Positions 30,240 through 62,889 of a stretch of 64,000 nucleotides of DNA are shown here, one piece after another. The notes beneath the pieces were generated by a model. The model was not told the origin of the DNA and ran no database searches. It was given only the letters and a program-made list of their open reading frames with translations. Each line of letters starts with the position of its first letter. Position 1 is the first letter of the stretch. A program made the translations under genes and the position numbers. The DNA lies in assembly GCF_964213995.1 (NCBI RefSeq), contig NW_027590151.1, forward strand, positions 806,001 to 870,000, in the 5' to 3' direction. This DNA comes from Mustelus asterias (Eukaryota).

Positions 30240-32130
30240 ACATTATCTCAGGATTGCTACCAGTGCCATGTACTATTCAGAGTCGAAACAGCAGGATATA
30301 TTGGGTGAATACCTGGCTGAAAAGATGATGTGAGAGGCAGGGTTTCAGATTCCTGGGACATTGCGACTGGTTCTGGGGAAGGTGGGACCAGTACAAACTG
30401 GACAGGGCCAGGACTGATGTCCCTGGGGGGGTTGGGAGTGTACTTGTTGAGTCATTGGGAAGGTTTAAACTAAAATGGCAGGGAGATGGAAACCTATGTA
30501 AGGATTCAGAGCAGAGGGTATCAAGAACAAGAGAAAAAGACAGCAAGAAGAATAAGAAAAGTGATAGGCAGAGAATCGAGAGCCAGAATCAGATACGGAC
30601 ACAGTAAAAAATGGTAGGAACTGGACAACAAATGTTAAAAGGACTAGCCTGAAGGTTTTGTCCATGAACGCTTGGAGCATTCAAAATAAAATGGATGAAT
30701 TTGTTGCACAGTTAGATGTAAAGGGGTATGATACAGTTGGGACTACAGAGACATAGCTCCAAGGTGACCAAGGATGGGAACTAAACATTGAGGGCTATTC
30801 AGTGTTTAGGAAGGACAGACATAAACAAAAACATGGTGGAGTTGCATTGTTAATTAAGGATGATATGTGGAATATGTATGGGTCAAGTTAAGCCACACCA
30901 AGGGGCAAAAAACATTTGTGGGTGTGGTATACAGACTACCAAATTAATGGTAATGTTAGGAAAAGCATTAGACAGGAAATCAGAGATGCATGTGTTAAAT
31001 AAATATCTGTGATTATAGGTGACTTTAATCTGCATACAGATTGGGTGATCAAATTAATCACATTACAATAGAGGAGGAATTTTTGGAGTGGTCTTCTGGC
31101 CCAATACTTTTGAGGAGCTAAGGGAGCATGCCATCTTGAACTGGGTATTGTGCAATGAGAAAGGATTGACAATCTAGTTGTGAGAGAACCCTTGGGGATG
31201 AGCGACCATAATATGATAGAATTCTTTGTCAAAGTGGATAATGATGTAGTTGATTCTGACACCAGAGTCCTGAATTTCAGTAAAGGTAACTATAATGGAT
31301 TGAGGCATGAATTGGCTATGATGGACTGGGAAACATGACTGAAAGGAAGGACAGTGGACAGACAATGTTAAAGTTTATTAGTCACAAGTAAGGCTGACAT
31401 TAACACTGCAATGAAGTTACTGTGAAATTCCCCTCGTCGCCACAGTCCGGCGCCTGTTCGGGTCAATGCATCTAACAACACGTCTTTCAGAATTTGGGAG
31501 GAAACCGGAGCACCCGGAGGAAACCCACGCGGACACGGGGAGAACATGCAAACTCCACAGAGACAGTGACCCAAGCCAGGAATCGAACCCGGCAGCATTG
31601 CGAACCACTATGCCACCCACGGTAGGCATTTAAGGAACAAGTAGGTGAACTTAAAGTTGTTTACTCCTATTTGGCACAAGAGTGGAAAAGGAACTGTAGC
31701 CAAACCATTGCTTCCAAGGGAAATTAGAGAGAGCATTAGATTCCAAGAAGAAGCATAAAAATTGGCAAGAAAAAGCAAAAGACCTGAGGATTGGGAGCAG
31801 TTTACAATACAGCAAAGGAGGACCAAGGAATTGATTCAGAAGGAGAAATTAGAATATGAAAGTAAGCTAGTGGGGAACATAAAAACTGAGTGTAAAAGGT
31901 TCTATAGGTATGTAAAGAGAAAAAGGTTGACAAAACGAATGTAGGCCCTTTACAGTCAGAAACAGGAGAATTCATAACGGGGAATAAAGAAGTGGCTGAG
32001 GAACTAAATTCGTACTTTGCTTCTGAATTCACAAAAGAATATCCCATGATTCAAAAAGGGAGGAAGCGAGAAAATGGGGAACTATAGACTACTGAGCCTA
32101 ATGTAGGTAGTAGGGAAGTTGCTAGGGTCA
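30240..32130 (+). mobile_element. Decayed CR1 LINE retaining the ORF1 end, ORF1/ORF2 junction and endonuclease
   Basis: ORF1-like NTWLKR..ERQGFRFLGH, GGTTTAAACTAA at 30462-30473, then decayed NAWSIQNK, GGVALL and IGDFN motifs. Confidence 0.8.
31369..31618 (-). mobile_element. V-SINE second family nested in CR1
   Basis: Same body and tail as 19885-20134. Confidence 0.8.
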
Positions 32131-33358: not shown

Positions 33359-34496
33359 CTCCTTGTTGTGACTGTAATTATGTTCCGAAAGGCTGGATGA
33401 TTGGTTGAAGTCTTGTCCACACACACAACACGTGTACAGTTTCTCTCCACTGTGGATGGCGCTGTTTTCTTCTATATTCAAAACACAATGATATTCAGGT
33501 TACAATAACTTGGCCGACTCCATCAGGTTCTGATACCACGTTTGGTTTGCGTTTCCCCACTGCAAATCCTCCTCTTCTAAATCAAACTGATTTAAAACAG
33601 CAAAAAGGGAGTGAGAGAGAACCCACAAAAACACAAAGGCAAGTTGTGAAATTGAGCTGAATGAATCTGGTATTTTGTGGGACCGGAGTGAGGAAAAGGT
33701 AAACATAAAAGCTGCTGAATTGTCATAAAAACCCAACTGAGTCACTAAGGTCCTTCAGGGAAGGGTATGTGCCACCTGGTCTGGGTCTACACAAGAATCT
33801 GGGCACTGTGTGAGGTGACAGAGAGAAGTGGGAGAGGCAGTGGCGAAGAAAAGGGATTTCAAACATCTATAACTCGACGGGAACTTTGACAGAATCTCCC
33901 AAACTCTCAATCTCCATCACCTATAAGGACCAAGGTAGCAGGTAGATGTGAACACCATCACCTCCAAGTTCGCTTTTAACTCACACACCATCCTGACTTG
34001 TCTGACATCCAGTACTAAAAGAACAGAAAATTCTTCCATATAAATACTGGGAAGACTGAACCCATTGAGTTCAGTTCCCACTACAAATTCCACTCTCTCA
34101 CCACCAAATCTACCCCTCTTCCTAGCAACTGTCTTGGGGTGAAATATTTCACCCCAAGATGAGCTTCCAGCCACATATCATCATCATCAAGACTGCCTAT
34201 TTGTGACATGAAACTCAGGAGAATGAGGATATAGAGGGAGAATGGAACTGACTGAATTGCTCTGCAGAGAGTTGCCATGGATTTGAGTTGCCAAATGGAT
34301 TCCTTCTATGCTGTAATTTTGCATGACTGTAACACTACATACTCTACCTCTCCTTTCCTTTTCTATGTACAGTATGCTTTGCCTGTGTAGCACGCAAAAA
34401 ACAATACTTTTCATTATACACTAATCCAAGAATAGAATCCCTATAGAATCGGGAAGACAATCCCCTGGGGCGGTTCCCCTCCATAATAGGTTTTCG

Positions 34497-35108
34497 GTGC
34501 TGGAGGCTACAGTTGAGGAGGAATCAACTGAGCATAGAGAGCAGATCTCTGGGGGTGAGCCGAGTGAGAAAGCTCAGGTGGTTAGGGGCTGTAAAAGACT
34601 GGGCCTTGTGATTGGGGACTCCACAATTAAGGGGACAGATGGGAGGGTCGGAACTAAAGGTAGGGACTCAGGGTTGGTGTGTTGCCTACCAGGGGCTGGG
34701 GTCCGGGATGTGTCTGACAGGGTATTCAGGACTCTTAGGGGGGAGGGAGATAAACCACAAGTTATTGTACATGTGGGGACACACGACATAGGGAGGATAG
34801 GGGAAGGGGTTATTAGGCAGGGATTTATGGAGTTGGGGTGGAAACTAAAGGCCAAGACTGACAGAGTGGTTATCTCTGGACTCTTGCCTGTACCACGGGA
34901 TAGTTTAGAGAGGAATAGGGAGAGGGAAGGTTTGAATTCATGGCTGAGGGGATGGTGCAGGAGGGAGGGGTTCAGGTACTTAAGCAATTGGGGCTCGTAC
35001 TGGGGAAGGTGTGACCTCTATGAGAAGGATGGTCTACACCTTAATCAGAAGGGGACCAATATCCTGGGGGGTAAATTTGCTAAGGCCATGCAGGGAGGTT
35101 TAAACTGA
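34497..35108 (+). CDS. CR1 ORF1, partial (SGNH esterase-like domain)
   Basis: VIGDS, CLPGAGV, VHVGTHD, DGLHLN motifs. Confidence 0.85.
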   Translation: MLEATVEEESTEHREQISGGEPSEKAQVVRGCKRLGLVIGDSTIKGTDGRVGTKGRDSGLVCCLPGAGVRDVSDRVFRTLRGEGDKPQVIVHVGTHDIGRIGEGVIRQGFMELGWKLKAKTDRVVISGLLPVPRDSLERNREREGLNSWLRGWCRREGFRYLSNWGSYWGRCDLYEKDGLHLNQKGTNILGGKFAKAMQGGLN

Positions 35109-35158
35109 TTCGGGGGGGGGGAGGGATCCTGAGTAGTGGGGCTGAAAGTGAGGGATGC

Positions 35159-37978
35159 ATGGATGGGGACTGCAATGCACGGCATTGCAGAGGTGGGGTG
35201 GAGCAGGGTTTGAAATGTGTATACTTCAATGCCAGGAGTATTCGCAATAAAGTGGGTGAACTTGCAGCGTGGATCAGTACCTGGGACTTCGATGTTGTGG
35301 CTATTTCAGAGACATGGATAGAGCAGGGGCAGGAATGGATGCTGCAGGTCCCGGGGTTCAAATGTTTTAGTCGAAGTAGGGAAGGAGGTAGAAGAGGGGG
35401 AGGGGTAGCATTATTGGTCAGAGATTGTATCACAGTGTCAGAGAGGAGGTTTGATGAGGACTTATCTGTTGAGGTAGTATGGGCGGAGATTAGAAATAGG
35501 AGAGGAGAGGTCACCCTGTTGGGAGTCTTTTATAGACCTCCTAAAAGTTCTAGAGAGGTTGAGGAAAGGATTGCGGAGTCAATCCTGCTTAGGAGTGAAA
35601 GTAATAGGGCAATTGTTATGGGGGATTTTAACTTGACTCATATTGACTGGAATTGTTATAGCTCTAGCTCGTTAGAGGGGTCAGTTTTTGTTCAAAGCGT
35701 GCAGGAAGGTTTTTTGACTCAGTATGTAGACAGGCCAACTAGAGGTGAGGCTATATTGGATCTGGTGCTGGGAAATGAGCCAGACCAGGTGCTAGACTTG
35801 GAAGTTGGTGTGCATTTTGGTGATAGTGACCACAATTCGGTTACGTTCACCTTAGTGATGGAAAGGGATAGGCATGAACCTCGGGCCAGTGGTTTTAGCT
35901 GGGGGAAGGGTAATTATGAGGCTATTAGGAGAGAATTAGGAAACATAGGTTGGACTAGGAGATTACAGGGACTGGGAACGTCCGACATGTGGAGTTTTTT
36001 CAAGGAGCAGCTACTGCGAGTCTGTGATAGGTATGTCCCTGTCAGGCAAGGAGGAATTGGTAGGGCTAGGGAACCGTGGTGCACCAAAAAAGTTTCTTTG
36101 TTGGTTAAAAAGAAAAAGGAGGCTTATGTTCGGATGAGACGTGAGCACTCGGGTAGTGCACTAGAAAGCTTTAGATTGGCTAAGAGGGAGTTGAAGAGCG
36201 AGCTTAGAAGGGCTAAAAGGGGACATGAGAAGACTTTGGCGGATAGGGTTAAAGAGAATCCTAAGGCGTTCTATAGGTATGTCAAGAACAGAAGGTTGGT
36301 TAGGGCAAGTTTAGGGCCAGTTATAGATGGCAGAGGGAAGTTATGTGTGGAACCGGAGGAGATTGGTGAAGCATTGAACCAATATTTCTCTTCGGTGTTC
36401 ACGCAAGGGGACATGAATATAGCTGAGGAGGACACTGGGTTGCAGGGGAGTAGAATAGACAGTATTACAGTTGATAAGGAGGATGTGCAGGATATTCTGG
36501 AGGGTCTGAAAATAGATAAATCCCCTGGTCCGGATGGGATTTATCCAAGGATTCTCTGGGAGGCAAGAGAAGTGATTGCAGAGCCTCTGGCTCTGATCTT
36601 CAGGTCGTCGTTGGCCTCTGGTATAGTACCAGAAGATTGGAGGTTAGCGAATGTTGTCCCATTGTTTAAGAAGGGGAACAGAGACTTCCCCGGGAATTAT
36701 AGACCGGTGAGTCTCACTTCTGTTGTCGGCAAGATGTTGGAAAAAATTATAAGGGATAGGATTTATAGTTATTTGGAGAGTGATGAATTGATAGGTGATA
36801 GTCAGCATGGTTTTGTGGCAGGTAGGTCGTGCCTTACTAACCTTATTGAGTTTTTTGAGAAAGTGACCAAGGAGGTGGATGGGGGCAAGGCAGTGGACGT
36901 GGTATATATGGATTTTAGTAAGGCGTTTGATAAGGTTCACCATGGTAGGCTTCTGCAGAAAATGCAGATGTATGGGATTGGGGGTGATCTAGGAAATTGG
37001 ATCAGGAATTGGCTAGCGGATAGGAAACAGAGGGTGGTGGTTGATAGTAAATATTCATCATGGAGTGCGGTTACAAGTGGTGTACCTCAGGGATCTGTTT
37101 TGGGGCCACTGCTGTTTGTAATATTTATTAATGATCTGGATGAGGGTATAGTTGGGTGGATTAGCAAATTTGCTGATGACACCAAAGTCGGTGGTGTGGT
37201 AGACAGTGAGGAAGGGTGTCGTAGTTTGCAGGAAGACTTAGACAGGTTGCAAAGTTGGGCCGAGAGGTGGCGGATGGAGTTTAATGCGGAGAAATGTGAG
37301 GTAATTCACTTTGGTAGGAATAACAGATGTGTTGAGTATAGGGCTAACGGGAGGACTTTGAATAGTGTGGAGGAGCAGAGGGATCTAGGTGTATGTGTGC
37401 ATAGATCCCTGAAAGTTGGGAATCAAGTAGATAAGGTTGTTAGGAAGGCATATGGTGTCTTGGCGTTTATTGGTAGGGGGATTGAATTTAGGAGTCGTAG
37501 CGTTATGTTGCAACTGTACACAACTCTGGTGCGGCCGCACTTGGAGTACTGTGTGCAGTTCTGGTCCCCACATTACAGGAAGGATGTGGAGGCTTTGGAG
37601 AGGGTGCAGAGGAGGTTTACCAGGATGTTGCCTGGTATGGAGGGGAGATCCTATGAGGAGAGGCTGAGGGATTTGGGATTGTTTTCGCTGGAAAGGCGGC
37701 GGCTAAGAGGGGATCTTATTGAAACATATAAGATGATTAGAGGTTTAGATAGGGTGGATAGTGATAGCCTTTTTCCTCTGATGGAGAAATCCAGCACGAG
37801 GGGGCATGGCTTTAAATTGAGGGGGGGTAGTTATAGAACCGATGTCAGGGGTAGGTTCTTTACCCAGAGGGTGGTGAGGGATTGGAATGCCCTGCCAGCA
37901 TCAGTTGTAAATGCGCCTAGTTTGGGGGCGTTTAAGAGATCTGTAGATAGGTTCATGGACGAAAAGAAATTGGTTTAG
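35159..37978 (+). CDS. CR1 ORF2: APE endonuclease + reverse transcriptase, intact, 939 aa from first ATG
   Basis: YFNARS, ISETW, MGDFN, SDH; QHGF, DFSKAFD, GVPQGSVLGP, FADD. Confidence 0.95.
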   Translation: MDGDCNARHCRGGVEQGLKCVYFNARSIRNKVGELAAWISTWDFDVVAISETWIEQGQEWMLQVPGFKCFSRSREGGRRGGGVALLVRDCITVSERRFDEDLSVEVVWAEIRNRRGEVTLLGVFYRPPKSSREVEERIAESILLRSESNRAIVMGDFNLTHIDWNCYSSSSLEGSVFVQSVQEGFLTQYVDRPTRGEAILDLVLGNEPDQVLDLEVGVHFGDSDHNSVTFTLVMERDRHEPRASGFSWGKGNYEAIRRELGNIGWTRRLQGLGTSDMWSFFKEQLLRVCDRYVPVRQGGIGRAREPWCTKKVSLLVKKKKEAYVRMRREHSGSALESFRLAKRELKSELRRAKRGHEKTLADRVKENPKAFYRYVKNRRLVRASLGPVIDGRGKLCVEPEEIGEALNQYFSSVFTQGDMNIAEEDTGLQGSRIDSITVDKEDVQDILEGLKIDKSPGPDGIYPRILWEAREVIAEPLALIFRSSLASGIVPEDWRLANVVPLFKKGNRDFPGNYRPVSLTSVVGKMLEKIIRDRIYSYLESDELIGDSQHGFVAGRSCLTNLIEFFEKVTKEVDGGKAVDVVYMDFSKAFDKVHHGRLLQKMQMYGIGGDLGNWIRNWLADRKQRVVVDSKYSSWSAVTSGVPQGSVLGPLLFVIFINDLDEGIVGWISKFADDTKVGGVVDSEEGCRSLQEDLDRLQSWAERWRMEFNAEKCEVIHFGRNNRCVEYRANGRTLNSVEEQRDLGVCVHRSLKVGNQVDKVVRKAYGVLAFIGRGIEFRSRSVMLQLYTTLVRPHLEYCVQFWSPHYRKDVEALERVQRRFTRMLPGMEGRSYEERLRDLGLFSLERRRLRGDLIETYKMIRGLDRVDSDSLFPLMEKSSTRGHGFKLRGGSYRTDVRGRFFTQRVVRDWNALPASVVNAPSLGAFKRSVDRFMDEKKLV

Positions 37979-38073
37979 GTTGGAGGGTCACAGTTTTTTT
38001 TTTAACTGGTCGGTGCAACATCGTGGGCCGAAGGGCCTGTTCTGCGCTGTAATGTTCTATGTTCTATGTTCTA

Positions 38074-38226
38074 CAGTGCAGAAGGAGGCCATTCGGCCAC
38101 CGAGTCTGTACCAACCACAATCCCACCCAGGCCCTATTCCCACAACCCCACACATTTACCCTGCTAATCCCCCGACACTATGGTCAATTTATTATGGTCA
38201 ATCACCCTAACCCACACATCTTTGGA
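38074..38226 (-). mobile_element. HE1 SINE 3' half
   Basis: CAGTGCAGAAGGAGGCCATTCGGCC...CACATCTTTGGA. Confidence 0.8.
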
Positions 38227-57770: not shown

Positions 57771-58510
57771 ACTAATCGCACTGCTTGTGTTTGACACATT
57801 TACAAACTACTCGGTGGCCATGGCAACACACACTCCATTTGTTGGTTCAGGGAGTTGAGTGGAATTTCCATTTTAAAGTGTCATCATTCATTGTACATCA
57901 GACCACATCTACAAACCTCTTTCTCACACTTCCAATGAAGAGGGACAAATGTGGATGGATGGATGGATCACTTTGAGAAATTCTTTACTGTCTAATGTGA
58001 TTTTCCCTCTCAACAGACCATTTATAAACCTTATTTCTGGGATCTTACGTCAATCACTTATTCAATTGTCCATTAGTCAGGGACATATTCTAGATAATCC
58101 GTCCTATTCCGATTGGATGTCCATGAAGTCATTTAGTGGCTCATCACTTGCTTGGACATCCTGTTCAATCTTTACTCAGACGGTTGGTTTACACGTGGGT
58201 CATGAGAACCCCACAACCCTATCAAATTCATCTTGTTTCAGGTTCTGTGCCAGTGACATGTCCTTGGCAGATATAACAGGCCGACACTGTCCTGTGTTTG
58301 TCAACCCAGGAAGCTTTCTTCATAAGTGAGAGAGATATTCCTATAATATTCAATACATTTCTAAATATTTTATCTCACAGTGATGCCTTACAGATCTCCG
58401 CACCCTGAGAAGGGAATAAAAGCAAAATACTGCAGAGGCTGGAATCTGAAACAAAAACAGAAAATGCTGGAAAATCTCAGTAAGTCTGACAGCATCACGA
58501 CCTTCGGACC

Positions 58511-58866
58511 TGCGTCTTGGAAGTGCAGCAGAGAGGGAGAGATTCGCGAGAGGAGTGCTGCGGGTAAGCGCTGTTATTTTTAACTTACTTTTTCGCGGGT
58601 TTTTTCTTTAAAAATATCTAAACCCGGAAGTGGTCGCGCAGGGAGGTCTGGGAGAGAGAGATTTTTTTTTTTTTAAAAAGTTACTCACCTCAGTGAATCG
58701 GCCTCATTGCGTCTTGGAAGTGCAGCAGAGAGGGAGAGATTCGCGAGAGGAGTGCTGCGGGTAAGCGCTGTTATTTTTAACTTACTTTTTCGCGGGTTTT
58801 TTCTTTAAAAATATCTAAACCCGGAAGTGGTCGCGCAGGGAGGTCTGGGAGAGAGAGATTTTTTTT
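58511..58866 (+). repeat. Two identical ~158-bp 5' UTR monomers (offset 197 bp)
   Basis: 58511-58669 matches 58708-58866; each has CCGGAAGT and CGG|GTAAG. Confidence 0.9.
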
Positions 58867-59053
58867 TCCCCAATAAATTGGAACAGAGAGGAATCCCGAT
58901 ACTCTACACTTGTAGAGTATCCCACCCTCCCTCCTCCTCTAACCTAAAAAAAAAGACCCAGTGAGAGCAGGGCTTTGGAGAAAACAGGAGGAGGAAAGGT
59001 AAGTTTAAAATTTTCATTCACTTTTTTTTCCCTGTGTGTTTAAAGGGGCAATT

Positions 59054-59971
59054 ATGAGTGTGAGGCCAGTATGTTGTTCCCAATGTAGGATGTGGGAGGT
59101 CCTGGAGGCTCCTAGCCTCCCGGACGACCATATCTGTGCTGGGTGTGTTGAGCTGCGGTTCCTAAGGGAACATGTTAGGGAACTGGAATTGCAGCTCGAG
59201 GACCTTCGCCGGGTTAGGGATAGTGAGGAGGTCATTGACAGGAGCTATCGGCAGGTGGTCACACCGGGACCATGGGAGGAGGGTAACTGGGTAACAGTGA
59301 GGAAGGAGAAAGCTCAGTTGATGGTGAGCACCCCGGTGGATGTGCCCCTTAATAATAAATACTCCTGTCTGAGTACTAATGGGGTGGACAGCCCACCTGG
59401 GGGAAGCAGCGTTGGCAGTGTCTCTGGAGCTGAGCCTGGCCCAGTAGTGCAAAAGGGTAAGGAAAGGAGGGTAGTGCTAACTGGGGACTCTACGGTGAGG
59501 GGGTCAGATAGGCGTTTTTGCGGACACAGACGGGACTCTCGGATGGTGGTTTGCCTCCCTGGTGCAGGGGTCCGGGATGTCTCTGGTCGAGTCCCAGAAA
59601 TCCTGAAGGGGGAGGGAGAGGAGCCGAAGGTCGTGATGCATATAGGTACTGCTGACATAGGTAGGAAGAGGGAAGGGGTCATGAAAAGAGAATATAGGGA
59701 GTTAGGTAGACAGCTGAGAAAGAGGAATGCAAAGGTAGTAATCTCGGGATTGCTGCCTGTGCCGCGGGAGAGTGAGAACAGGAATCGGTGGAGAATGAAT
59801 GCGTGGCTGAGGGACTGGAGCAAGGGACAAGGATTTGGGTACTTGGATCATTGGGACCTCTTTAGGGGCAGGTGTGACCTGTTTAAAAAAGACGGGTGGC
59901 ACTTGAATCCCAGGGGGACCAATATCCTGGCGGGAAGGTTGGCTAAGGCTACTGGAGAGACTTTAAACTAG
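59054..59971 (+). CDS. CR1 ORF1, 305 aa: Cys zinc-binding motif, coiled coil, SGNH esterase-like domain
   Basis: CSQC..CAGC, LREHVRELELQLEDLRR, LTGDS, HIGTAD, DGWHLN. Confidence 0.92.
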   Translation: MSVRPVCCSQCRMWEVLEAPSLPDDHICAGCVELRFLREHVRELELQLEDLRRVRDSEEVIDRSYRQVVTPGPWEEGNWVTVRKEKAQLMVSTPVDVPLNNKYSCLSTNGVDSPPGGSSVGSVSGAEPGPVVQKGKERRVVLTGDSTVRGSDRRFCGHRRDSRMVVCLPGAGVRDVSGRVPEILKGEGEEPKVVMHIGTADIGRKREGVMKREYRELGRQLRKRNAKVVISGLLPVPRESENRNRWRMNAWLRDWSKGQGFGYLDHWDLFRGRCDLFKKDGWHLNPRGTNILAGRLAKATGETLN

Positions 59972-59976
59972 AAAGG

Positions 59977-62889
59977 TTGGGGGGAGGGAATCGAAATGAG
60001 GGGACTGAGAGCGAGGAGGTTAGCTCGCAAATAGATAAGGAATGTAAACAGGGTAAGAGGGAGGTTAGACGAGTGATGGAGAAGGGAAGTGCTCAGGCTG
60101 AAGGTCTGAGATGTGTCTATTTTAATGCCAGGAGTGTAGTGAATAAAGTGGATGAGCTTAGAGCGTGGATTGCTGCTTCGAATTGTGATGTGGTGGCCAT
60201 TACGGAGACTTGGATGTCTCAGGGACAGGACTGGGTGCTTCAGGTGCCGGGTTTTAGATGTTTCAGGAAGGACAGGGAGGGAGGCAAGAGAGGGGGGGGA
60301 GTGGCACTGTTGATCAGGGATAGTGTCACGGCTGTAGAGGAGGTGGACGCCGTGGAGGGATTGACTACGGAGTCTCTGTGGGTGGAGGTGAGGAACAGGA
60401 AGGGGTCGGTAACGTTGCTGGGTGTTTTCTATAGGCCGCCCAATAGTAACAGAGATGTTGAGGAGCAGATGGGGAAACAGATCCTGGAGAGATGTAGGAA
60501 TAACAGAGTTGTCGTGATGGGAGATTTTAATTTCCCAAACATAGATTGGAATATCCCTAGGGCTAGGGGTTTGGATGGAGAGGAGTTTGTTAGGTGTGTC
60601 CAGGAGAGTTTCCTGACACAGTATGTGGATAAGCCTACTAGAGGAGAGGCTGTACTTGATCTGGTGCTGGCTAATGAACCTGGACAGGTGGAGGATCTCT
60701 CGGTGGGTGAGCATCTTGGGGATAGCGATCATAATTCTATCTCCTTCACGATAGCATTGGAAAGAGATAGGATCAGGCAGGCTAGGAAAGTGTTTCTCTG
60801 GAGTAAAGGGAAATACAGTGTCATCAGGGAGGAAATTAGACGGGTAAATTGGAAGGAGGCATTCTTGGGGAAAAGTACCGAAGGAAAGTGGAGGATTTTC
60901 AAGGAATGTTTGTCTGGAGCTCTGCATGACAACGTTCCGATGAGACAGGGGGGTGTTGGTAGGGTACGGGAACCGTGGTGCACGAAGGTTGTGATGAACC
61001 TGGTGAATAAGAAAAGAGAGGCGTACAGAAGGTTCAGAGAGCTAGGAGGTGTTAAGGATTTAGAGGAGTATACGGGATGTAGGAAGGAGCTTAAGAAGGA
61101 AATTAGGAGAGCGAGAAGGGGTCATGAGAAGGCCTTGGCGGGTAAGATTAAGGAGAATCCCAAGGCTTTCTACAAATATGTCAAGAGTAAAAGGATGAGA
61201 TGTGAAGGCATAGGACCCTTAAAAGGTGAAGGGGGAAAAGTTTGTGCGGAACCGTTAGAAATGGCGGAGCTGCTTAATGAATACTTTACCTCGGTATTCA
61301 CGGTGGAAAGGGATCTGGGTGGTTGTACTGCTGGTTTGCGGTGGACAGAAAGGATCGAGCATGTGGACATAAAGAAAGAGGATGTGTTGGAACTATTGAA
61401 TGGCATCAAGGTTGGTAAGTCGCCGGGACCGGATGGGATGTACCCCAGGTTACTGTGGGAGGCGAGGGAGGAGATTGCGGAGCCTTTGGCGATGATCTTT
61501 GCATCGTCGATGGAGACGGGAGAGGTTCCGGAGGATTGGAGGATTGCAGATGTGGTCCCTATATTCAAGAAAGGGAACAGGGACAGCCCGGGAAATTACC
61601 GACCGGTGAGTCTAACCTCAGTGGTTGGTAAGTTGATGGAGAGGATCCTGAGAGACAGGATTTATGATCATCTAGAGAAGTTTAGTATGATCAAAAGTAG
61701 TCAGCACGGCTTTGTCAAGGGCAGGTCGTGCCTTACGAGCCTGGTTGAGTTCTTTGAAAATGTGACCAAACACATTGACGAAGGAAGAGCGGTGGATGTG
61801 GTCTATATGGACTTCAGCAAGGCGTTCGATAAGGTCCCCCATGCAAGACTTCTTGAGAAAGTGAGAGGGCATGGGATCCAAGGGGCTGTTGCCTTGTGGA
61901 TCCAGAACTGGCTTGCCTGCAGAAGGCAGAGAGTGGCTGTGGAGGGGTCTTTCTCTGCATGGAGGTCAGTGACCAGTGGAGTGCCCCAGGGATCTGTTCT
62001 GGGACCCTTGCTGTTTGTCATTTTCATAAATGACCTGGATGAGGAAGTGGAGGGATGGGTTGGTAAGTTTGCTGACGACACCAAGGTAGGTGGTGTTGTG
62101 GATAGTTTGGAGGGATGTCAGAAGTTGCAGCGAGACATAGATAGAATGCAAGACTGGGCGGAGAAGTGGCAGATGGACTTCAACCCGGATAAGTGTGTGG
62201 TGATCCATTTTGGCAGATCCAATGGGATGAAGCAGCAGTATAATATGAAGGGTACCATTCTTAGCAGTGTAGAGGATCAGAAGGACCTTGGGGTCCGGGT
62301 CCATAGGACTCTTAAATCGGCCTCGCAAGTGGAGGATGCGGTCAAGAAGGCGTACGGCGTACTGGCCTTCATTAATCGAGGGATTGAGTTTAGGAGTCGG
62401 GAGATAATGCTGCAGCTTTATAGGACCCTGGTTAGACCCCACTTGGAGTACTGCGCGCAGTTCTGGTCACCTCATTACAGGAAAGATGTTGAAGCCATTG
62501 AAAGGGTGCAGAGGAGATTTACAAGGATGTTGCCTGGATTGGGGGGCATGCCTTATGAGGATAGGTTGAGGGAGCTTGGTCTCTTCTCCCTGGAGAGACG
62601 AAGGATGAGAGGTGACCTGATAGAGGTTTACAAGATGTTGAGAGGTCTGGATAGGGTAGACTCTCAGAGGCTATTTCCAAGGGCTGAAATGGTTGCTACG
62701 AGAGGACACAGGTTTAAGGTGCTGGGGGGTAGGTACAGAGGAGATGTCAGGGGTAAGTTTTTCACTCAGAGGGTGGTGGGTGAGTGGATTCGGCTGACGT
62801 CGGTGGTGGTGGAGGCAAACTCGTTGGGGTCTTTTAAGAGACTTCTGGATGAGTACATGGGATTTAATGGGATTGAGGGCTATAGATAG
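59977..62889 (+). CDS. CR1 ORF2: APE endonuclease + reverse transcriptase, intact (first ATG 60076)
   Basis: YFNARS, ITETW, MGDFN, SDH, QHGF, GVPQGSVLGP, FADD. Confidence 0.95.
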   Translation: MGGGNRNEGTESEEVSSQIDKECKQGKREVRRVMEKGSAQAEGLRCVYFNARSVVNKVDELRAWIAASNCDVVAITETWMSQGQDWVLQVPGFRCFRKDREGGKRGGGVALLIRDSVTAVEEVDAVEGLTTESLWVEVRNRKGSVTLLGVFYRPPNSNRDVEEQMGKQILERCRNNRVVVMGDFNFPNIDWNIPRARGLDGEEFVRCVQESFLTQYVDKPTRGEAVLDLVLANEPGQVEDLSVGEHLGDSDHNSISFTIALERDRIRQARKVFLWSKGKYSVIREEIRRVNWKEAFLGKSTEGKWRIFKECLSGALHDNVPMRQGGVGRVREPWCTKVVMNLVNKKREAYRRFRELGGVKDLEEYTGCRKELKKEIRRARRGHEKALAGKIKENPKAFYKYVKSKRMRCEGIGPLKGEGGKVCAEPLEMAELLNEYFTSVFTVERDLGGCTAGLRWTERIEHVDIKKEDVLELLNGIKVGKSPGPDGMYPRLLWEAREEIAEPLAMIFASSMETGEVPEDWRIADVVPIFKKGNRDSPGNYRPVSLTSVVGKLMERILRDRIYDHLEKFSMIKSSQHGFVKGRSCLTSLVEFFENVTKHIDEGRAVDVVYMDFSKAFDKVPHARLLEKVRGHGIQGAVALWIQNWLACRRQRVAVEGSFSAWRSVTSGVPQGSVLGPLLFVIFINDLDEEVEGWVGKFADDTKVGGVVDSLEGCQKLQRDIDRMQDWAEKWQMDFNPDKCVVIHFGRSNGMKQQYNMKGTILSSVEDQKDLGVRVHRTLKSASQVEDAVKKAYGVLAFINRGIEFRSREIMLQLYRTLVRPHLEYCAQFWSPHYRKDVEAIERVQRRFTRMLPGLGGMPYEDRLRELGLFSLERRRMRGDLIEVYKMLRGLDRVDSQRLFPRAEMVATRGHRFKVLGGRYRGDVRGKFFTQRVVGEWIRLTSVVVEANSLGSFKRLLDEYMGFNGIEGYR

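Follow-up and report, generated by a model that had tools for sequence, protein, structure and literature searches.

LINEs (long interspersed nuclear elements) such as L1, SART1 and CR1 carry two open reading frames (ORFs) on a bicistronic RNA that must yield little of the second protein, ORF2p. According to the available part of a 2026 survey, most vertebrate species have CR1-group elements as their dominant retrotransposons (PMC13343379). The subject of this analysis is the ORF1/ORF2 junction of the CR1 copies in a 64,000-nucleotide stretch of the Mustelus asterias genome, hereafter the window (NCBI RefSeq assembly GCF_964213995.1, contig NW_027590151.1, positions 806,001 to 870,000 of the forward strand). 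At this junction a slippery heptamer, the ORF1 stop codon and a G-rich box follow one another in a cassette of 27 nucleotides (nt), and the arrangement very probably marks a site of programmed -1 frameshifting. The cassette bears on how CR1 makes ORF2p and may reveal a new kind of frameshift stimulator.

Several routes to ORF2p have been described for other LINEs. In the available parts of the sources, the L1 route is called an unusual and unresolved form of initiation (PMC5009743), and +1 shifting or read-through is suggested for LINEs of Paramecium (PMC5405496). A -1 frameshift is required for ORF2 in TRE5-A and TRE3-A of Dictyostelium, as summarized in the accessible portion of a review (PMC5911963). 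These are two-ORF LINEs with an apurinic/apyrimidinic endonuclease (APE), as is CR1, but they differ from it in clade, ORF1 type and host, and the same portion of the review describes neither a heptamer nor a stimulator nor an experiment for them (PMC5911963). The reinitiation proposed for L1 and SART1 involves a spacer or an overlapping stop-start, as far as the consulted sections describe it (PMC5972666). CR1 instead has a slippery heptamer and a fixed -1 overlap.

Among viruses, the -1 site between ORF1a and ORF1b of coronaviruses uses the heptamer U_UUA_AAC. The CR1 junction has the identical heptamer in the correct phase and likewise places a polymerase in the -1 frame. Unlike the coronavirus site, it has no conserved pseudoknot or hairpin, a stop codon follows the heptamer immediately, and a G-box lies at a 10-nt spacer. 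UUUAAAC is termed an efficient slippery sequence in the available text of Yu et al. (PMC3919603). In the nsp2 gene of PRRSV, the virus of porcine reproductive and respiratory syndrome, -1/-2 frameshifting depends, as the accessible part of one source describes it, on a C-rich motif 11 nt downstream that forms no RNA structure and is bound by nsp1beta and PCBP (PMC7939443). CR1 resembles PRRSV in that a short conserved motif about 11 nt past the shift site takes the place of an RNA structure; it differs in that the motif is G-rich, only the -1 frame is open and any binding protein is hypothetical. G-tracts 3' of a slippery site are also shared with frameshifting stimulated by G-quadruplexes (G4s), judging from the parts available (PMC3919603; HDAC1, PMC12809536). 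The former work used engineered reporters, and the HDAC1 case is a +1 shift on codon repeats. CR1 has no conserved set of four G3 tracts. According to the consulted part of another source, no natural case of G4s serving productive frameshifting was known as of 2016, and in pea enation mosaic virus a stop codon 3 nt past the shift site is of importance (PMC5009743).

A literature search turned up no report of CR1 frameshifting; it did not extend to the 1990s papers on full-length chicken and turtle CR1s, which may have suggested one. The main text of the 2026 survey contains none of the terms 'frameshift', 'overlap', 'translation' or 'start codon' (PMC13343379), and the available parts of four further papers held no relevant passage (PMC11835228, PMC5006619, PMC7175516, PMC8764243). 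If the frameshift is real, ORF2p would carry ORF1p at its N-terminus in the manner of Gag-Pol, annotated ORF2 starts would need correction, and a host-genome element would hold a structure-free -1 signal.

The junction signal and the subfamily A G-run

The central copy lies on the forward strand, as do the parts of all three junctions described here, at 34447..38073, and belongs to a young subfamily termed A. Its ORF1 ends in the heptamer TTTAAAC (35099-35105), read as U_UUA_AAC in ORF1 phase, which is the predicted shift site. The TGA stop follows directly (35106-35108); other lineages have TAA or TAG. The -1 frame opens after a TAA at 35081-35083, 15 nt before the heptamer, reads LIRGGGGILSSGAESEGCMDG followed by LKCVYFNARS, and remains open to 37978. 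Two properties of a canonical -1 site are thus present, namely an X_XXY_YYZ heptamer in the upstream phase and a downstream ORF that is open in -1 across the heptamer. After the heptamer come the six nucleotides TGATTC, a run of ten G (G10, 35112-35121), an A, GGG (35123-35125), and distal tracts of GGGG (35138-35141) and GGG (35152-35154). The first four G of the run are specific to the subfamily and the length of the run sets the frame, while the distal tracts are unconserved in other lineages. The conserved G-box, a candidate stimulator, occupies 35116..35125, or +11..+20 past the heptamer.

A second copy, of subfamily B, has the same order at 59962..59988: TTTAAAC (59962-59968), TAG, 7 nt and a G-box (59979-59988), with ORF2 open in -1 to 62889. 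Its upstream TAA (59944-59946) again stands 15 nt before the heptamer. The distance between the first Met and L[KR]CVYFNARS is 17 residues in A and 10 in B. A third, degraded CR1 copy (30464..30490) retains the heptamer, TAA and a decayed G-box. TTTAAAC alone is frequent, with 34 strand-matches in the window, but an in-phase stop follows only three of them (35099, 59962 and 30464), and all three are CR1 ORF1 ends. The first-pass annotation had given the positions of the subfamily A signal, its heptamer, stop and G-tracts, the TAA distance and heptamer common to both elements, the 17 versus 10 residues, and a -1 frame open from the TAA into ORF2; all were correct when the sequence was re-read.

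The whole account, in which heptamer, stop and G-box in fixed order form a -1 site that yields an ORF1-ORF2 fusion, is judged probable. On this model the majority of ribosomes would terminate at the UGA, setting ORF1p free. The remaining, smaller share would slip back by one base on U_UUA_AAC, the tRNAs re-pairing from UUA/AAC to UUU/AAA, and would then translate LIRGGGG and proceed through the endonuclease and reverse transcriptase. The outcome would be a ratio of ORF1p to fusion like that of Gag to Gag-Pol. The likely cause of the pause is the G-box, 11-20 nt downstream, acting jointly with the stop that forms the following codon. The layout of the junction, its conservation, its phase and the lack of AUG are observed, and from them we infer the shift, the fusion product and a role for the G-box to be likely.

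The length of the G-run is critical in subfamily A, and a different explanation of the phase starts from it: the -1 offset could be a homopolymer accident, through assembly error or slippage, or else polymerase slippage on the G-run, or read-through of the stop, could give access to ORF2. The run does vary. A hand count of the first 100 listed junctions gave 76 with G10, and among the 24 others 16 with G11, 2 with G9, 3 with G12, 1 with G13 and 2 with 14 nt. Genome-wide, however, in the 3.68-Gb assembly, G10 accounts for 1953 of 2626 subfamily junctions (74%; exact G10 pattern against free-gap pattern), and shared variants reveal no G11 source lineage. Among 90 copies (65 G10, 22 G11 and 3 longer), the variant at 35889 occurs in 10 G10 and 4 G11 copies and that at 35599 in 5 and 2, so that the informative variants divide G10 and G11 at about the sample ratio; a variant of three G11 copies was uninformative, only two G10 copies having covered that position. 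Since G10 is modal and variants are shared by both classes, G11 is sporadic and does not form a sublineage. G11 as the true state of the subfamily was thereby ruled out by the whole-genome counts and the shared-variant test, and the sequence evidence identifies G10, and hence the -1 phase, as the source state of subfamily A. Contigs from three of four public runs match the G10 window without a gap, and the fourth had no reads at the site, although the runs were chosen by word-sharing with this G10 copy and are a biased sample. Moreover, lineages with only four to six G share the phase, and ORF2 already lies in -1 without any indel. A homopolymer origin is therefore largely refuted and highly improbable. 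The first-pass annotation had asked that the G10 length be checked and had named frame-breaking G-runs in other young copies as a result that would defeat its proposal; the modal G10 and the lack of a G11 lineage do not bear this out.

Conservation across CR1 lineages and distant relatives

Junctions were sampled through the endonuclease motif and not through the heptamer. The sample held 80 distinct endonuclease starts, 19 without an ORF1 end upstream and 61 with ORF1 homology. In 49 of the 61, ORF1 ends in TTTAAAC plus a stop, and ORF2 lies in -1 in 41, in frame 0 in 4 and in +1 in 4. Most of the off-frame copies differ by small indels and belong to lineages in which -1 is the mode; one comes from the old lineage M. 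The remaining copies comprise 2 with a single heptamer substitution, both in -1, and 10 degraded ones in which the first in-frame stop is not the junction. In subfamily B, all 23 copies with a detected ORF1 end are in -1 (7 of 30 were unscored).

Conservation was then read from 21 representatives, the least degraded copy of each of 16 in-genome lineages plus five amniote-like loci; endonuclease identity ranged from 32 to 94% among 18 lineages compared. Neither the heptamer nor the T of the stop varies among them, and the adjacent stop is kept in 21/21. The Leu codon is TTA throughout (14% of the Leu codons used by these ORF2s) and the Asn codon AAC throughout (36% of Asn codons). The codon that supplies the first U ends in T in every representative, against a background of 25%, yet it encodes nine different residues (A, G, T, N, D, R, C, S and V). 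The linkers, of 105-267 nt, contain no stops in the -1 frame and 85 and 106 stops in the other two frames, each of which is interrupted at least once in every representative. Across the in-genome lineages, 14 different modal linker lengths occur, between 116 and 266 nt, and every one of them preserves -1. The upstream TAA stands 15 nt before the heptamer in 9/21 lineages and 1-71 codons away in the others. The -1 phase is also kept by each of three lineages that appear to be recombinant, joining a B-type ORF1 end to an endonuclease 87-93% identical to that of lineage H.

Related elements outside this genome were sought in a metagenome scan that returned 80 loci, with hosts inferred by similarity alone; two scans of viral contigs found no relatives. 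At least 50% identity to a bird-derived endonuclease was seen in 23 loci, which are termed amniote-like. Heptamer plus stop occurs in 10 of these 23, and 9 of the 10 are in -1. Of the 57 loci below 50% identity, 29 distinct ones were kept by hand, each having an ORF of 70 or more residues that overlaps ORF2 in -1. A strict in-phase heptamer is found in 27 of these 29 overlaps, compared with 4 and 5 in the other phases: 22 are A_AAA_AAC, 3 U_UUU_UUA, 1 A_AAA_AAU and 1 G_GGA_AAC. The count of A_AAA_AAC is qualified by the fact that in this group the heptamer doubles as the codons of a recurring Lys-Asn, far from the ORF1 end. The elements with U_UUU_UUA, at 32-36% endonuclease identity, end ORF1 in FLL*, FLG* or FLV*, one codon past the heptamer, and an esterase ORF1 is present in both of those scanned (two of the three). 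This ending argues against Leu-Asn-stop as a mere protein feature.

These observations bear on a different route to ORF2, by termination-reinitiation or AUG-independent initiation, under which TTTAAAC-stop would be no more than the end of a protein (Leu-Asn) or a restart signal. Such routes have been proposed for L1 and SART1, in the sections of the sources consulted (PMC5972666, PMC5009743), and in subfamily A the first in-frame ATG (35159) is 50 nt past the ORF1 stop. However, 11/21 lineages have no in-frame Met ahead of endonuclease motif I, and an in-frame ATG occurs no more than 30 nt from the stop in only two. Reinitiation also leaves unexplained the fixed -1 phase over 14 linker lengths, the invariant synonymous choices and the exchange of heptamers in distant relatives. 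Overall, it is improbable as the source of ORF2p in these elements.

Two side observations belong here. The recombinant lineages (L156, L112 and L130) combine B-type ORF1 ends with H-type endonucleases, and the lineage with the 266-nt linker has a duplicated first endonuclease motif within it. Separately, the invertebrate-like CR1-group elements L211-L269 have long -1 overlaps, mostly of 190-280 nt, with an in-phase A_AAA_AAC well ahead of the ORF1 stop, and may represent a separate candidate frameshift class without a G-box.

Candidate stimulators downstream of the heptamer

A stable hairpin or pseudoknot 5-9 nt downstream, as in canonical -1 sites, was not found. No outstanding hairpin is predicted for either subfamily A (z -1.01) or B (z -1.38), and neither a consensus fold nor a z below -1.8 emerged among the 21 junctions, in predictions that did not model pseudoknots explicitly. 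The general element is instead a two-tract box, GGGG-N3-GG, at +11..+20, with G at +11..+14, +18 and +19 in 21/21. A conserved unstructured motif about 11 nt downstream, as in PRRSV-type sites, is thus present in the form of the G-box. The G at +11 and +14 fall on third codon positions in 21/21, and large length changes in the linker fall behind the box. Genome-wide, the cassette heptamer-stop-N7-box has 21,137 matches and its reversed control 4. Spacers one base off are rarer, with 751 matches for N6 and 891 for N8; the N6 count includes lineages H and M, in which the box break natively lies one base earlier, and frame preservation by itself disfavours 1-nt spacer shifts. The 6-nt spacer of the first-pass annotation arises because subfamily A carries four extra G before the box.

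A stimulator in the form of an RNA G4, two-tier in most lineages and possibly three-tier or intermolecular in some, would keep the frameshift but change its cause. The available text of Yu et al. reports that G4s stimulate -1 shifting on the same UUUAAAC, up to about 7% at spacers of 6-8 nt (PMC3919603). The G-run of subfamily A begins at a 6-nt spacer, and a G4 may still add to the effect there. G4Hunter scores reach at least 1.2 in 18/21 lineages, and all 21 fall within the top 3% of their own locus background. Additionally, the ViennaRNA minimum-energy fold contains a G4, nearly always two-tier, in 10/21 junctions, compared with 2/118 background windows of ORF2, taken at an equal offset, in each of two elements, which indicates that G4 potential is enriched but not general. 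The other 11/21 have no G4 in the predicted fold, a three-tier pattern starts near the site in 2/21 only, and lineages D and E have just GGGGG and GGG nearby. The conserved box stands at a 10-nt spacer, past the reported optimum, and fewer quartets give less shifting in the part of that study consulted (PMC3919603). In subfamily A a weak hairpin competes with the G4 (z -1.0), and four G3 tracts with short loops at 6-8 nt downstream are available only if a loop is allowed to reach 12 nt or the G4 is two-tier. A G4 as the general stimulator is therefore doubtful. The strong G4 candidate of the first-pass annotation holds by score, this copy reaching 1.92 in G4Hunter (top 0.1% of locus background windows), but fails the canonical three-tier pattern with loops of up to 7 nt, which it matches only when loops of up to 12 nt are allowed. 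Its suggestion of a pause by G4 and/or stop fares similarly: the four-tract G4 is unconserved, while the stop, kept in every representative, plausibly has a role.

Returning to the frameshift as such, the 10-nt spacer lies beyond the 6-8 nt optimum of G4s and near the 11 nt of the PRRSV motif, and we therefore lean towards a protein-bound motif together with the adjacent stop. By analogy with PRRSV, a single-stranded G-rich motif bound by a host factor or by ORF1p is put forward tentatively as the stimulator; the stop acting alone seems rather unlikely. Pairing of the G-box with a C-rich 5' untranslated region (UTR) motif was considered and rejected; it reaches -32 and -28 kcal/mol in certain A and B copies, but other copies of both subfamilies and other lineages lack it. 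For vertebrate CR1s from cartilaginous fish to amniotes, the chances are about even that an ancient -1 cassette (U_UUA_AAC, stop, 7 nt, G-box) produces endonuclease and reverse transcriptase as an ORF1-ORF2 fusion, with no hairpin but a G-rich motif acting through a protein or a G4, and within a wider CR1 group that uses -1 shifting on interchangeable heptamers.

Several observations weigh against these interpretations. About 26% of subfamily A junctions (673/2626) are other than G10, and among the first 30 loci of a protein search, an unrepresentative sample, 22 had G11 and 24 had ORF2 in frame 0 past the stop. An in-frame Met precedes the endonuclease in 10/21 lineages, subfamily A included. 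The 21 representatives were hand-picked in favour of intact frames and are related rather than independent, and no P-value is therefore claimed. The old lineage M has only 3/17 junctions open in -1 over the first 40 codons, and 8/17 are -1 by length; as a frame-0 counterexample this lineage (L150) was set aside, since 30 more loci showed an old, indel-ridden family, too decayed to count for or against, in which the three copies open over 40 codons are all in -1. The G-box was absent from all 26 distant loci checked, and its conservation may be partly at the protein level, as it encodes Gly-x-Gly. Four distant CR1-group loci with a long ORF1 (L256, L257, L259 and L263), outside the 29 that were kept, overlap ORF2 in +1, and the one such element scanned has a PHD-finger ORF1; -1 shifting is therefore not universal in the CR1 group. 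Finally, the one raw-read RNA run examined had 0 reads at the site, and assembled contigs are uninformative about translation.

The CR1 copies and their surroundings

The subfamily A copy is 5'-truncated. From 34447 onwards it is 99.7% identical to the full-length copy L013, and by comparison with a full-length copy it has no promoter and no ORF1 start; it is therefore a dead-on-arrival copy that is not translatable as a whole element. The high identity means that its sequence reports a recently active source. The ORF1 remnant (34447..35108) ends in AKAMQGGLN* and contains an SGNH/GDSL esterase domain; the PF13472 match (E 1.3e-07, 32.7 bits) is slightly below the cutoff of 32.9 in this truncated frame and stronger in the ORF1 of subfamily B (E 2.6e-12). 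ORF2 (35105..37978, in -1) consists of a 35-residue linker, an APE endonuclease (PF03372, E 8.5e-20) with its motif starting at 35210, and a reverse transcriptase (PF00078, E 7.6e-36), with a further match to PF14529. The 3' end is made of TTCTATG repeats up to 38073, with no poly(A). A microsatellite 3' end without poly(A) is a feature of CR1. By its sequence, then, the element is a CR1 LINE, with an esterase-type ORF1, an ORF2 of APE endonuclease and reverse transcriptase, and such a 3' end. The definition applied to canonical vertebrate CR1 rests on an ORF2 with these two domains, and poly(A) is unique to Zenon within the CR1 group, according to the available part of the survey (PMC13343379). 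Among named homologues of the endonuclease, the best come from rays and a sawshark, followed by birds, a turtle and a frog.

Some copies point to exchange of 5' ends. Members of the same subfamily (L013 compared with L008 and L029, and L062 with L079) have sequences ahead of ORF1 that are unrelated to each other, and different subfamilies contain similar 5' UTR modules, which suggests promoter swapping. The 5' UTR of the B element contains a tandem duplication of ~200 nt at about 58510-58900. Another B copy, at G000:C4:149881183, lies inside an open frame of 1330 residues, possibly an ORF1-ORF2 fusion that arose through an indel.

The region at 34900-35500 is mostly present in public runs carrying 8 organism labels and in one hot-spring metagenome, which may reflect close relatives, recent spread or contamination. 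The A copy apparently sits inside the 3' tail, in antisense orientation, of another repeat; the flanks at 34430-34447 and 38073-38100 are continuous with each other. At least nine C2H2 zinc-finger exons are clustered at 2600-54400, with CR1 fragments interspersed among them.

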